A stretch of 64,000 bases of DNA from Escherichia coli O127:H6 str. E2348/69 (lineage in GTDB: Bacteria; Pseudomonadota; Gammaproteobacteria; Enterobacterales; Enterobacteriaceae), in assembly GCF_000026545.1 (NCBI RefSeq), contig NC_011601.1, one strand, 5' to 3'. The position numbers and the translations under genes were made by a program. Positions within the stretch are counted from its first letter, which is position 1; every line of letters starts with the position of its first letter. Below the pieces are notes generated by a model. It saw only the letters and a program-made list of their open reading frames with translations, did no database searches and had not been told where the DNA came from. Positions 1,074-22,658 of the stretch are shown in pieces.

Positions 1074-2102
1074 CTAAATTTGATATCTCTCGAATTTTAT
1101 AATTTCTTCACCGCTCCAATGATTAAATTCTTTCATTCTTTTTTGTAATGGTAATAATTCATTTTTCACAAATACCTTACTAGCTTTTTCTACATCCCCA
1201 AATCCCCCAACATTATTAGGCATTATCCCCATCATTTGTGGCGGCACACGATGCGCTGCCATCATGTCATCCCGACTCACGTTCTTGATGTTAAGAAATT
1301 CATCCTTCGCCGCGACTTCTGACAACGGGATGATCTGAAGCCCGTCCTTTTTGCCGTTAGGCGAGTACATAAACAGGTTGCGGAAGTTGCCAGGGCCTTT
1401 GGCGCTTTTCATCGCATTGCGGAGGTTGTTCACATCCTCCTGGTTCTGCGCGGCATCGGTCATGTACATGATGAAGCCTGCATGACTGCCGTTAATGTAA
1501 TACTTCCGGCGGAACAGCGTGGCGGACTCGTTGAGCAGGGCTGACGGAATGGCAGAAAGATAACCTGGCAGGCCGTAGATCTCCTGGTTGATGTCCGGTT
1601 CCATCAGATGAAAAATGCTGCCTTTCGTGAACTGATACGGCTGGGTTGTCATACCGTATTGCACAAACCAGTAGGTATCCAGGTCTAACCCGCGTCGGGT
1701 GTATTTTGCCAGAGCAGGCTCAAGGGCGATAACTTCACCGAAGCGGTTCGTGCGTTTCTCCAGGTAGGCGTTACCAAATACCAGATAGTCCTGCACAAAA
1801 CGTGAAAAAGCCTGCTGGCTGAGCAGCGGGTGAGGGATGTAGGTACTGGTCAGAATATTGCATTTCACCGCAATCGGTGAGCTGTGATGCACGGCGGCGC
1901 GAAAGGTGCGCGCCAGCCCGTCAAAACTCACTGGCGGCTCATACCATCGATCTGTCTGTACGCATTCCACATAGTCCAGCAGTTCACGGCGGTCCAGAAC
2001 AGGAACGGGATCGCCGAAGCTGAATGCTTCGGCTGAAGTCTGGCTTTTATGCTGGATCTGATTCATCGCCGCTACGCGGTTTTTTTTACTCTTTCCCATC
2101 AA
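1074..2102 (-). CDS. Q: portal protein (P2 gpQ-like)
   Basis: ~342 aa, position and orientation as in P2 (Q and P divergent from O); sequence recognised as P2 portal family. Confidence 0.9.
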   Translation of the reverse strand: MMGKSKKNRVAAMNQIQHKSQTSAEAFSFGDPVPVLDRRELLDYVECVQTDRWYEPPVSFDGLARTFRAAVHHSSPIAVKCNILTSTYIPHPLLSQQAFSRFVQDYLVFGNAYLEKRTNRFGEVIALEPALAKYTRRGLDLDTYWFVQYGMTTQPYQFTKGSIFHLMEPDINQEIYGLPGYLSAIPSALLNESATLFRRKYYINGSHAGFIMYMTDAAQNQEDVNNLRNAMKSAKGPGNFRNLFMYSPNGKKDGLQIIPLSEVAAKDEFLNIKNVSRDDMMAAHRVPPQMMGIMPNNVGGFGDVEKASKVFVKNELLPLQKRMKEFNHWSGEEIIKFERYQI

Positions 2103-3865
2103 AAAATCTCCACAATATTACTGGTATTGGCGGACTCGCCCTGCAGTGGTTCGTTAAACAGTGCGTGCATTGTTGCCCAGGCCAGATCGGCGTGGCTGGC
2201 TTCTTCGCTGCGGCTGGCTTCATAGGTCGGGCGGTTGCCACTGGCGGTGGTGGCGCGACGGATTGCCATAAATGACTGCGCTATGTCGGTGTGTCCGGCG
2301 TCAAACTCCAGACGGCGGTGGCTGATAATGTCGTAGGCCTTGAGTACCAGAGCGTTTTTAACGTTGGGGTTGTAGACAAACTCCCGGACGGCAGGAAAGA
2401 ACGCTTTCACGTTCTCATAAACCCCGTGACCGACGCCTGTCGAGTCGATGCCGATATAGGTCACGTTGTACTGCTCGGTCAGTTTTTTGATTGCATCAGC
2501 CTGGGCGCGGAAGTCCATCCCGCGCCACTGGTGACGCTCAAGAATGCGAAACTTACCGCCTGGCACGGCTGGCGGTGCCACCACCACGCATCCGGCGCTG
2601 TCGCCGTTCTGCGTACCTTTTGCCGGGTCATAACCGATCCACACCTCGCGCCAGCCAAACGGGCGCAGGGCCAGTGCATGAAAGTCGGTCCAGACTTCCC
2701 AACTGTCCACCATGCACGCCTGCAGTTCGCTGAGCGGGAACACGGACGCGAGATCGTCCACGAACTCGCACATCAGCAGGTTCTGGTATTCGTCCGGGCT
2801 GTACTCCATGCGTAGCTGGTCGAGGTCGAACAGGTTACAGCCGCCGCGCACCGCATCTTCCACGGTGACTATCTGGCGGTATTGCCCGTCTGCGCACAGC
2901 AGGCCGGGGGCCAGATTGTTGTGGGACAGGTCGATGTCCACCTTATCGGCTTTGTTGCGCCCACGGTTAAACAGCGCACCGGACCAGAACGGATAAGCAC
3001 TGTGTGTCAGGCTGGATGGCGTGGAAAAATAGGTTTGTCGCCATTTTTTGTGAATAGCCATACCGGAAGCCACTTTGCGCAGCTCCTGGAATTTCGGTAT
3101 CCAGAAATATTCATCCAGATACAGGTTGCCGTGGTAACTCTGGGCCGTGCGGGCATTGGTGCCGAGGAAGTACAGTGTGGCCCCGTTAGGAAGCACCATC
3201 GGATCGCCTTTCAGCTCCACCTCGACTTCTTTGGCGAAGTCGATGATGTACTGCTTAAAGACGTGGGCCTGAGCCTTGCTGGCGGAAAGGAAAATCTGGT
3301 TACGCCCGGTTAGCAGGGCGTCAATCAGGGCTTCACGGGCAAAATAGAAGGTCGCGCCGATCTGGCGTGACTTCAGCAGGTTGCGGATGCGGTTGGTTTT
3401 TCCGGCTTCCCACCAGTGGCGCTGGTAGTTGAACATGGAGGAATGGAAGATTTCTTCCAGCTTCTCAATCTGTTCATCGGTGAAAACGTTCTTTTCCGGC
3501 TGACGGCGCGGGCCTTTGTTGCGGTTGGCGACGTTAGGGTTTAAGTCGGCTTCGTTGCCGCCATTGTTAAACTTGCCGATCCGCGCATGGCGCTCCGACT
3601 GGCGCGCCAGCAGGTCAATCTCTTTGAAATCTTTCCCTTCTTTGTGCTCCTTCATAATGAGCTGACAGTAGCGTGCGGCGGTGGTGAGCTGCATCTGATC
3701 CAGCGGCCCATAGTCACCCCACTTGTCGCGTTTTTTCCAGCTGTGAACGGTTGCAACTTTCTCGCCCAGCATTTCAGCAATGCGGGCGACGCGGTATCCC
3801 TGAAAGTACAGCAGCATGGCCTGCCGACGGGGATCGAGATCTGCGGGTGTCAGTGTGGTGTTCAT
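2099..3865 (-). CDS. P: terminase large (ATPase) subunit (P2 gpP-like)
   Basis: 588 aa, overlaps Q by 4 nt, classic P2 Q-P operon arrangement. Confidence 0.9.
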   Translation of the reverse strand: MNTTLTPADLDPRRQAMLLYFQGYRVARIAEMLGEKVATVHSWKKRDKWGDYGPLDQMQLTTAARYCQLIMKEHKEGKDFKEIDLLARQSERHARIGKFNNGGNEADLNPNVANRNKGPRRQPEKNVFTDEQIEKLEEIFHSSMFNYQRHWWEAGKTNRIRNLLKSRQIGATFYFAREALIDALLTGRNQIFLSASKAQAHVFKQYIIDFAKEVEVELKGDPMVLPNGATLYFLGTNARTAQSYHGNLYLDEYFWIPKFQELRKVASGMAIHKKWRQTYFSTPSSLTHSAYPFWSGALFNRGRNKADKVDIDLSHNNLAPGLLCADGQYRQIVTVEDAVRGGCNLFDLDQLRMEYSPDEYQNLLMCEFVDDLASVFPLSELQACMVDSWEVWTDFHALALRPFGWREVWIGYDPAKGTQNGDSAGCVVVAPPAVPGGKFRILERHQWRGMDFRAQADAIKKLTEQYNVTYIGIDSTGVGHGVYENVKAFFPAVREFVYNPNVKNALVLKAYDIISHRRLEFDAGHTDIAQSFMAIRRATTASGNRPTYEASRSEEASHADLAWATMHALFNEPLQGESANTSNIVEIF

Positions 3866-3911
3866 GGCACAAACCTACAGCCTTGAATGAAGGCTTTCCC
3901 CGCCTGCGGTT

Positions 3912-3929
3912 TGTGTGGTTGTCGGTACA
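3912..3929. promoter_or_regulatory. TGT-N12-ACA dyad, candidate Ogr-dependent late promoter element for the O operon
   Basis: TGTGTGGTTGTCGGTACA lies ~80-95 bp upstream of the O start codon; P2 late promoters carry a TGT-N12-ACA element near -55. The pattern also occurs by chance, so the call rests on placement. Confidence 0.4.
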
Positions 3930-4007
3930 AATACCGCGCATTGTTTCACTGCCTCCATCACCGCAACCATAAGGCTCCAGTAAGTTTTTTCTAACGGAGC
4001 ACGGCTC

Positions 4008-22117: not shown

Positions 22118-22204
22118 TTCTTCGCAATGGAGAACTTTTAAGTTTGCAAAATGGAATAATGCGGTATTATTGTGAATTTAGCAAAAATGGGGAGAACTCG
22201 AAAA

Positions 22205-22423
22205 ATGATGATTTGCCCACTGTGTGGAAGTGCCGCCCATACTCGCAGCAGTTTTCAGGTATCTTCATTGACCAAAGAGCGTTACAACCAGTGCCAGAAC
22301 ATTAACTGCAGCCATACTTTTGTTACCCATGAAACTTTTGTTCGTTCGATTGCAACGCCAAAAGAGTCAAATCCGGTTCAGCCGCATCCAATGAAATCAG
22401 GACAGGTGGCGCTCTCTCTTTGA
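22205..22423 (+). CDS. ogr: Ogr/Delta-type zinc-finger late transcription activator
   Basis: 72 aa from ATG 22205; CPLC...C..C zinc-binding pattern (CPLCGSAAH...CQNINCSHTF). Confidence 0.85.
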   Translation: MMICPLCGSAAHTRSSFQVSSLTKERYNQCQNINCSHTFVTHETFVRSIATPKESNPVQPHPMKSGQVALSL

Positions 22424-22503
22424 CGCTGCCGCCATTTTGTCGCCATCGTTAAAAAACAGTGTTTCTAACATCATGATTTTAAACAGCTTAAATTTCAGGC
22501 AAC

Positions 22504-22546
22504 AAAAAACCCATCAACCTTGAACCGAAATGGCGGGGTTGATGGG
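22504..22546 (-). terminator. putative terminator downstream of ybjL
   Basis: 10-bp inverted repeat CCCATCAACC/GGTTGATGGG followed on the minus strand by a T-run. Confidence 0.4.
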
Positions 22547-22658
22547 CTCCACAAAATGGGGACATCAAAGAAAAGCAGTGGCACTAATTAAGACTGATGC
22601 CCTGCGGAAAAGTTCTGCGGTTGTGCAAAAAAATTTCATTTTCAGGGCAACTTCAGTT

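Follow-up and report, generated by a model that had tools for sequence, protein, structure and literature searches.

What remains of the phage whose late genes lie in the 64,000-nucleotide stretch of the Escherichia coli O127:H6 E2348/69 chromosome analyzed here (the window), and how did its tail genes come to be rearranged? A first-pass annotation of the window described a rearranged late-region remnant that had lost its integrase, immunity, cox, and replication genes. Comparison of the locus with the chromosome to its left and with intact relatives shows instead a full 34-kb P2/186-family prophage, placed in the Peduoviridae near Wadgaonvirus, which was most likely crippled by invertase recombination at a look-alike site.

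Extent of the prophage and its early region

The prophage unit measures 34,169 bp and carries a 26-bp att repeat at both ends. The features that delimit it are as follows.

L001 7347-7372: attL core, identical to the attR copy, 11,654 bp left of window position 1
L001 18362-18391: predicted cos homologue, GGCGTGGCGGGGATACGAG then CGCGCGCTAAC, identified by its likeness to P2 cosL
22489-22514: attR core, TAAATTTCAGGCAACAAAAAACCCAT, the longest word common to both prophage ends
22501-22579, minus strand: full-length rybB sRNA gene (folding; Rfam RF00110 at 105 bits over model positions 1-79)

The insertion site has rcdA on one side and the 3' end of rybB, followed by ybjL, on the other; the empty site, built in silico, occurs uninterrupted in 4,227 of the 5,426 complete E. 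coli genomes searched. The att core overlaps the last 14 nt of rybB, and integration at this core would be carried out by the tyrosine integrase of the prophage. The boundary had been placed between ogr and a terminator hairpin, which agrees with the position of attR, but the hairpin (∼22508-22548) is the terminator of rybB, as indicated by folding and the Rfam match, and not of ybjL. A simple terminator scan at attR found no terminator, because the hairpin loop exceeds the limit of the scan. Nor is the element inserted upstream of ybjL in the transcriptional sense, since it lies 3' of both ybjL and rybB; and it does not start at position 1074, but runs off the left edge of the window.

The 11.7 kb directly left of the window contain the integrase, two CI-like genes, CII, Fil, Dam, the replication endonuclease A, and a DinI-like gene. 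This early region is of the 186 type, and none of its genes is flagged as a pseudogene in the PGAP annotation; in the whole prophage, only S is so flagged. P2 cosL reads GGCGAGGCGGGGAAAGCAC then TGCGCGCTGAC, and the predicted cos matches it at 14 of 19 positions with a conserved flank, which would place a P2-type cos beside the packaging genes. It is true that the genes reported as lost are all absent inside the 64-kb window, but this is a sampling effect: the window edge cuts the prophage in two, leaving in view just the late region and the cargo next to cos. With an integrase, a duplicated att core, and the early genes on the same chromosome, bounded by attL, and with an insertion that matches the empty site of so many genomes, loss of the early region is extremely improbable.

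The nearest classified record is Escherichia phage 500465-1 (genus Wadgaonvirus), and the nearest intact prophages are those of E. coli NCTC11121 and AMSHJX01, the latter at the same rcdA-ybjL integration site. The late DNA of close relatives is 96 to 98.5% identical to that of the E2348/69 prophage, which shares with P2/186-family phages the late gene set and order, the Ogr/Delta activator, the cos-adjacent cargo hotspot, and the 186-type early genes CI, CII, Fil, A, and DinI-like. It differs from these relatives in that S and H are truncated, 4.76 kb are inverted, and the invertible fiber segment is deleted. An IMG/VR contig (source viral contig, 36.8 kb) is identical to the E2348/69 locus across the 11.7 kb compared.

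Late genes and the inverted segment

Matches above the Pfam gathering scores were obtained for Q, P, O, N, M, L, X, Y, K, R, V, W, J, I, FI, FII, E, U, D, and ogr; together with the PGAP names, these bear out the reported presence of P2-like late genes from Q to ogr. S and H also have Pfam matches above these scores (Phage_tail_S and Phage_tail_fib). The gene order is that of P2 except for the inverted block, and an Ogr/Delta-type late activator is present. The late backbone has a GC content of 55 to 56%, somewhat higher than the flanking chromosome, which corrects its earlier description as typical for enterobacteria; the two cargo regions are AT-rich, as had been noted.

1074-2099, minus strand: Q, portal (Pfam Phage_portal, PGAP name)
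2099-3865, minus strand: P, large terminase (Pfam Terminase_6N/6C/5, PGAP name)
4008-9376, plus strand: O operon, intact, with O, N, M, L, X, holin Y, lysozyme K, lysA, lysB, lysC, and R (Pfam)
9369-9746, plus strand: S', truncated S (tail completion; PGAP pseudogene, "missing C-terminus"; Pfam Phage_tail_S, 2-127 of 148)
9731-9756: left junction JL, TTATGCTAAACG TA GGTATGTGAGAA, core at 9743-9744
9744-14502: inverted segment, 4,759 bp, with H', I, J, W, and V, late promoter pV, cargo 2 (HEPN), and the final 22 codons of S
9731-10792, minus strand: H', tail fiber, constant N-terminal 353 aa only (Pfam Phage_tail_fib 1-150; alignment)
10789-11394, minus strand: I, intact (Pfam Tail_P2_I)
11387-12295, minus strand: J, intact (Pfam Baseplate_J)
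12282-12641, minus strand: W, intact (Pfam GPW_gp25)
12638-13216, minus strand: V, intact (Pfam Phage_base_V)
13262-13279, minus strand: TGT-N12-ACA dyad, the Ogr/Delta activator-site motif of late promoter pV (from the sequence)
13299-14453, plus strand: cargo 2, encoding 384 aa with a HEPN fold at the C terminus, at the P2 orf30 position between S and V
14431-14502, minus strand: detached 3' end of S, the last ∼22 codons and stop (alignment to NCTC11121 S)
14490-14515: right junction JR, TTCCAAGTAACC TA CGTTTATGAAAA, core at 14502-14503
14571-15137, plus strand: Gin/Hin/Cin/Pin-type DNA invertase (serine recombinase), intact (Pfam Resolvase, E = 7e-53; HTH_7, E = 1.5e-15)
15280-22423, plus strand: F operon and ogr, intact, with FI, FII, E, E', T, U, D, and ogr (Pfam, PGAP)
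22205-22423, plus strand: ogr

The genes of the O operon have the lengths found in intact relatives. S is disrupted, as reported: alignment with S of two relatives shows that S' retains native residues 1 to 126 of 148, and its ORF continues to position 10157 through 136 codons antisense to H, while the missing 3' end now lies 4.7 kb away. H' stops a few codons beyond a crossover site, whereas H in the relatives comprises 500 to 519 aa. The variable end of H, both fiber-assembly genes, and the alternative H end of the relatives are all absent, in agreement with the earlier statement that distal tail fiber genes are missing.

The first-pass annotation recognized an inverted V-H block. The genes V, W, J, I, and H' are indeed on the minus strand (9731 to 13216), but the true block spans 9744 to 14502 and takes in the second cargo gene, located between S and V in intact relatives. 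The segment is 99.94% identical to its counterpart in NCTC11121, and V, W, and J have the same protein accessions as in that strain. It carries the pV dyad, whose center lies 54.5 nt from the V start codon; the geometry is that of the annotated pV activator and start site of P2, and of the AMSHJX01 dyad.

When 4,759 bp of NCTC11121, the relative used for reconstruction, were inverted and another 1,969 bp removed in silico at three 26-bp sites, its sequence became colinear with the window and aligned to positions 1140 to 18077 in a single piece, with 98.5% identity; AMSHJX01 was compared by alignment. In JL, the left half of a look-alike site (quasi-site) in S is followed by the left half of the H crossover site in reverse complement. 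In JR, the right half of the S quasi-site, in reverse complement, is followed by the right half of the crossover site nearest the invertase gene. Among 5,426 E. coli genomes, JL was found only in assemblies of E2348/69, and JR is likewise unique to this strain. Viral contig scans found JL only in the contig identical to E2348/69, and did not find a deletion-type hybrid with a 2-bp core. An inverted-repeat search from 9000 to 15400 did not reveal the junction sites, because their arms are short hybrids; they become visible only by alignment with intact relatives.

The invertase, its crossover sites, and the origin of the rearrangement

The intact invertase gene at 14571-15137 does not appear in the first-pass annotation. 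The protein is a small serine recombinase with a resolvase catalytic domain and a C-terminal helix-turn-helix; over 185 aa it shares 76% identity with Mu Gin, the YVRVST motif near the N terminus among the shared residues. It matches PDB 3UJ3 (E = 1e-93) and 4M6F, and has the same protein accession in NCTC11121. The 5' part of its gene aligns with gin. In NCTC11121 and AMSHJX01, two inverted 26-bp imperfect-dyad sites flank alternative fiber ends. In E2348/69 the fiber segment is deleted and only two hybrid sites are left, flanking a different, 4.76-kb segment, so the strain has the enzyme without the standard switch.

The serine invertase, the 26-bp imperfect-dyad sites, and the 2-bp core resemble those of the Mu Gin/G segment, as well as P1 Cin, e14 Pin, and Salmonella Hin. 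The layout is also Mu-like, with one site in the fiber gene at the boundary of its constant and variable parts and the other ∼55 nt upstream of the invertase gene, in the register of gixR. E2348/69 differs from Mu in that the normal invertible segment is gone and the hybrid sites involve an S quasi-site; no switching has been reported at the locus.

The three parental sites are thus the two gix-like crossover sites of the fiber inversion system and the quasi-site inside S. With a scoring matrix built on only six half-sites, the quasi-site ranks third of 19,285 late-region positions; at 13.45 bits it comes directly after the true pair and before a fourth position at 9.0. It is a weak site, and random 19-kb sequence reaches the same score 9% of the time. 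The S allele that lacks the cargo module scores -7.9. The core dinucleotide is TA in the quasi-site and TT and AA in the true crossover sites. Mismatched cores normally block ligation by Hin/Gin-type enzymes.

The ancestral order would have been R-S-(HEPN gene, antisense)-V-W-J-I-H-G-G'-H'end-invertase, where the four elements from H to H'end formed a switch like the Mu G segment between two 26-bp crossover sites. We propose that a Gin-family invertase recombined the true crossover sites with the 26-bp look-alike near the end of S, in two events that could have occurred in either order: a 4,759-bp inversion between the S quasi-site and the H site, and a 1,969-bp deletion of the invertible segment. 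The outcome would be truncation of S, severing of H at its constant/variable boundary, and removal of both fiber-assembly genes, with the V operon flipped together with its own late promoter. The catalyst was most likely an invertase, either that of the prophage itself or one of the three others active in the strain.

A rearrangement without an invertase, by illegitimate or short-homology recombination or by replication slippage that ended in these sequences by chance, has some points in its favor. The partners share short identical runs where they are joined, AGGT in JL and ACGTTTA in JR, the latter inside 12 nt with one mismatch. Sequence comparison locates each crossover to a 4- to 7-nt stretch containing the core rather than to a single bond. 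The invertase route needs two rare events, and both the weakness of the quasi-site and the differing cores count against it. All three endpoints, however, are the centers of 26-bp dyad sites, namely the two true crossover sites and the top-scoring look-alike of the late region. The spacing of 12+2+12 is exactly kept at both junctions, each of which is a half-site hybrid centered on the 2-bp core, and the sites are in register with Mu gixR, JR lying at the same distance from the invertase start. The P2-like prophage of strain EC16 (NZ_CP189734.1) bears on both readings: it has independently undergone the deletion alone, at the same two half-sites, with the result that a truncated H adjoins the invertase gene. 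Unlike E2348/69 it has no inversion, S is intact, there is no cargo between S and V, and its junction lacks the 2-bp core. The missing dinucleotide is what host trimming of ends would produce, and speaks for a measure of host repair instead of clean joining by site-specific recombination. On balance we think it unlikely that the E2348/69 rearrangement arose without an invertase.

The inversion could also be an assembly artifact, or the phage could be functional, with its early region and cos to the left, and caught in one phase of a normal reversible switch. The early region and predicted cos are indeed there, an intact invertase gene adjoins the inverted segment, and re-inversion is chemically conceivable because the hybrid sites are inverted and have identical palindromic TA cores. 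Yet the same orientation and junctions are found in three independent assemblies, and a paired-end inversion scan of four colonies of the strain (sensitivity, ∼1%) detected three invertase-driven switches but none at this locus (PMC4272514). Neither data set gave a sign of switching, a result compatible with switching below ∼1%. Flipping back would restore S, but could not undo the 1,969-bp deletion of the H end and assembly genes, so that the inversion is not a phase of a functional phage. An artifact or simple phase state is therefore very unlikely, and invertase recombination at the quasi-site remains our preferred reading.

A close precedent for such an event is P1 Cin, a fiber-switch invertase that on rare occasions uses secondary, look-alike crossover sites (PMC4270481). 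The P1 events were selected in the laboratory, unlike the fixed natural event in the prophage of a pathogen seen here, which combines inversion and deletion. Papers by Iida and co-workers from the 1980s reportedly give further detail on inversions, deletions, and gene fusions produced by Cin at look-alike sites.

Cargo genes and the fate of the prophage

Two cargo regions are seen in the window; the first begins to its left.

1-85, plus strand: 3' end of ShosT, a phosphoribosyltransferase ORF (whole ORF, L001 18511-19086; PADLOC ShosT, E = 3.7e-14)
75-1049, plus strand: ShosA (cargo 1), the DprA-like partner of ShosT (PADLOC, E = 2.8e-70; Pfam DNA_processg_A, E = 1.4e-60)

The ShosT ORF starts 490 bp left of the window, is absent from the RefSeq annotation, and has weak NCBIfam matches of the ComF/PRTase type. 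It is adjacent to ShosA with an 11-bp overlap, and the two form a ShosTA gene pair. Cargo 1 (GC content, 41.5%) lies between cos and Q, whereas P2 cos is within ∼190 bp of Q. Its position between A and Q resembles the P2 old/tin cos-adjacent hotspot, from which a DprA+PRTase pair, possibly a different allele from the ShosTA of E2348/69, was reported to block T7 and lambda (preprint 10.1101/2021.01.21.427644).

Cargo 2 likewise has a counterpart in position, the nonessential orf30 of P2, which is also antisense between S and the pV activator site; no similarity between the two proteins was detectable. The S-V module has a GC content of 32.9%, and the gene is found between S and V in 17 other genomes. 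The protein has the four-helix HEPN fold, and the R-x4-6-H motif that is catalytic in HEPN RNases of the abortive-infection or toxin type is present as R339 and H344 (RDKIAH), both invariant in 16 homologues with identities down to 32%. No family assignment was found in Pfam, PADLOC, or NCBIfam. This HEPN-fold gene family, uncharacterized and located at the P2 orf30 position across Enterobacterales, is a candidate defense gene.

The prophage contains two or three intact defense-type cargo modules, and its set (ShosTA, the HEPN gene, and a KAP NTPase) differs from that of each relative. Judged by gene content, it can probably still excise, replicate, package, and lyse, yet would give no infectious particles, with S and H truncated and both fiber-assembly genes deleted along with the receptor-binding end of H. 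The earlier view of a defective prophage retained with its cargo fits these observations, and the element would persist as a carrier of ShosTA, the HEPN-fold gene, and the KAP-NTPase module.

The rearrangement is a known kind of event and leaves current concepts unchanged. It may be that P2-like prophages are repeatedly locked into the chromosome, their defense cargo intact, through quasi-site recombination by their own fiber invertases, with E2348/69 and EC16 as two independent cases. The hybrid TA-core sites of E2348/69 might also continue to invert the 4.76-kb segment at low frequency, so that S would alternate between an intact and a truncated form; we regard this combined proposal as speculative and rather doubtful. 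For the much-used EPEC reference strain, the record is corrected to a full-length prophage whose defect is one local, mechanistically explicable rearrangement and not erosion. The look-alike site arrived with the AT-rich cargo module, and acquisition of this moron would therefore have created the weak point that later crippled the phage. The locus, in which both products and all three parental sites can be read, offers a clean natural example of a fiber-switch invertase that most likely damaged its own phage at a look-alike site.

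Extent of the prophage and its attachment site

Window positions 1-22700 are identical (100%) to the chromosome of EPEC strain E2348/69 in three independent assemblies (window position 1 is 864001 of NZ_LT827011.1); between 22.7 and 64 kb lies ordinary core chromosome spanning ybjL to cydD. The prophage ends in a 26-bp direct repeat, TAAATTTCAGGCAACAAAAAACCCAT, one copy of which lies directly past the rcdA stop codon. When the outer flanks are joined with one repeat copy, 4,227 of 5,426 complete E. coli genomes contain the resulting sequence without interruption; about 1,200 of the 5,426 have no such uninterrupted empty site. 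The repeat ends and the empty site define the prophage as a 34,169-bp unit, of which the right-hand 22.5 kb fall in the window. The features at its right end are as follows:

22489-22514, second copy of the att repeat (attR core)
22501-22579, minus strand, sRNA gene rybB (Rfam, 105 bits, full length)

The hairpin that the first-pass annotation assigned to a ybjL terminator is the rybB terminator. The final 14 nt of rybB fall within the att core, and the gene is intact at attR; the 3' end of an sRNA gene is thus the integration site of this P2-like phage family.

The same annotation described a late-region remnant without early genes, a description contradicted by the sequence between rcdA and window position 1. 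This contains genes for a tyrosine integrase, a KAP-family NTPase, two CI-like repressors, a CII-family regulator, Fil, a Dam methylase and an 804-aa replication endonuclease, and a DinI-like gene, none of which is flagged as a pseudogene in the RefSeq annotation. A cos homologue, GGCGTGGCGGGGATACGAG then CGCGCGCTAAC, is found 640 bp left of the window; P2 cosL reads GGCGAGGCGGGGAAAGCAC then TGCGCGCTGAC. In P2, cos is at most about 190 bp from Q (local positions 1-190), whereas in the E2348/69 prophage (compare 18392-19075 of L001, the chromosome record that includes the region left of the window) the two are held apart by ∼1.7 kb of ShosTA cargo, so that hotspot cargo can occupy the Q side of cos.

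What had been observed within the window holds. Each P2 late gene from Q to ogr scores above the Pfam curated thresholds, with PGAP names in agreement; S is disrupted and flagged as a pseudogene; the V-H block is inverted, with H', I, J, W, and V on the minus strand (9731-13216); and the two cargo regions are AT-rich, at 41.5% and 32.9% GC versus 55-56% for the late backbone. The S product matches S of two relatives over residues 1-126 of 148, then continues for 136 codons antisense through H. H is 353 aa here versus 500-519 aa in relatives, and the remaining late genes have the same lengths as in intact relatives.

Anatomy of the rearrangement

A related prophage at the same integration site, in E. 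coli AMSHJX01, has the order R-S-V-W-J-I-H-G-G'-H'end-invertase-FI. In 17 other genomes, the AT-rich gene that adjoins V in the window lies between S and V and is oppositely oriented; it is therefore part of the inverted block. In P2, the nonessential orf30 occupies this S-V position. The three 26-bp sites in the intact prophage of E. coli NCTC11121 and the two window junctions, JL and JR, are compared below.

Recombination sites (NCTC11121, phage orientation) and window junctions
NCTC11121, near the S end, S quasi-site (26-bp look-alike): TTATGCTAAACG TA GGTTACTTGGAA
NCTC11121, constant/variable boundary, H site: TTCTCACATACC TT GGTTTGGGAGAA
NCTC11121, 55 nt upstream of the invertase gene, invertase-proximal site: TTCTCCCAAACC AA CGTTTATGAAAA
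Window 9731-9756, JL: TTATGCTAAACG TA GGTATGTGAGAA
Window 14490-14515, JR: TTCCAAGTAACC TA CGTTTATGAAAA

JL and JR are exact half-site hybrids. We rearranged NCTC11121 in silico by inverting the 4,759-bp segment bounded by the S and H sites and deleting 1,969 bp from the H site to the invertase-proximal site. The product gave a single alignment across window 1140-18077 (98.5% identity, two gaps), and only 3 of 4,766 positions differed in the inverted segment. Among 5,426 genomes, JL and JR are present only in three E2348/69 assemblies; they also occur in one IMG/VR contig, identical to E2348/69.

We infer that one exchange cannot yield JL and JR together: the S site would have to recombine with a partner made up of the left half of the H site plus the right half of the invertase-proximal site. 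Both an inversion and a deletion would be required, and could have taken place in either order. The junction cores, at 9743-9744 and 14502-14503, are both TA, like that of the S quasi-site, whereas the true sites have TT and AA; TA being palindromic, the overhangs of the two hybrid sites are compatible with each other whichever way the sites are aligned.

The P2-like prophage of E. coli EC16, an independent prophage, differs in carrying a deletion alone, at the same half-sites, and its whole invertible fibre segment is gone. At its junction (NZ_CP189734.1, local positions 7055-7080) the two outer half-sites, TTCTCACATACC and CGTTTATGAAAA, are joined without the 2-bp core, so host repair of ends may contribute in EC16.

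The fibre-switch invertase as likely agent

The following gene lies beside JR:

14571-15137, DNA invertase gene, 188-aa serine recombinase, 76% identical to Mu Gin

Its product has the same protein accession as that of the intact NCTC11121 prophage. When the invertase-proximal site is aligned with the annotated Mu gixR, the two are in register and equally far from the start codon. With a half-site matrix built from Mu and the true sites of relatives, the S quasi-site scored 13.45 bits and ranked third of 19,285 positions in the NCTC11121 late region, behind only the two true sites; the next best position scored 9.0 bits. Random 19-kb sequence attains 13.45 bits in 9% of trials, so the S site is unremarkable in itself; its coincidence with the breakpoint is what stands out. 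The AMSHJX01 S allele, which has no S-V cargo, scores -7.9 at the equivalent place, so the look-alike site arrived with the AT-rich cargo module.

An invertase of this kind is thus the likely agent, by secondary-site recombination, a known class of event: Cin occasionally uses secondary crossover sites (Arber, PMC4270481). The enzyme could have come from another prophage, since active switching in E2348/69 was found at three invertase loci, of which one belongs to a Mu prophage and two to other P2-like prophages (Goldberg et al., PMC4272514); the table of that study lists no switching event at the present locus in E2348/69.

Cargo modules and consequences for the prophage

The first gene of the window is ShosA (DprA-like), and ShosT is the 191-aa phosphoribosyltransferase (PRTase) ORF directly upstream, which the window edge interrupts. 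The pair sits in the cos-adjacent hotspot between cos and Q, and a DprA-PRTase pair from this hotspot was reported to block T7 and lambda (10.1101/2021.01.21.427644). The cargo features are as follows:

L001 18511-19086 (window -490 to 85), ShosT ORF, unannotated in the RefSeq record
L001 8586-11052, left of the window, KAP module, between int and the 189-aa CI gene
13299-14453, cargo 2, 384-aa protein with a predicted C-terminal HEPN fold

AMSHJX01 likewise has no annotation over the equivalent 1.1-kb stretch. The KAP module, a third AT-rich module (33% GC), encodes a KAP-family P-loop NTPase matching the PADLOC candidate PDC-S20 (E=5e-78) and a 307-aa protein in which CI-repressor-like stretches recur. 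AMSHJX01 instead has DUF4276 and AAA ATPase genes at this position, which suggests a third cargo hotspot. The cargo 2 protein has an invariant RDKIAH motif, and its gene is conserved at the S-V (P2 orf30) locus of P2-like prophages from E. coli, Citrobacter, Enterobacter, Cronobacter, and Pantoea.

As a result of the rearrangement, S is without its last 22 residues, H would be without its receptor-binding end, and neither fibre-assembly gene remains. Still intact are V, W, J, and I, with which a TGT-N12-ACA dyad (13262-13279) was carried along; the dyad is centred 54.5 nt from the start codon of V, which is the annotated P2 pV geometry. The inverted block is probably still expressible, and would now converge on the O operon. 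Its near-identity to intact relatives suggests a recent event. The mechanism and the object are both of known kinds, the object being a P2-family prophage disabled by local rearrangement; given its lesions and its otherwise full-length late genes, we expect it to be inducible and to lyse the host, releasing particles predicted to be noninfectious.
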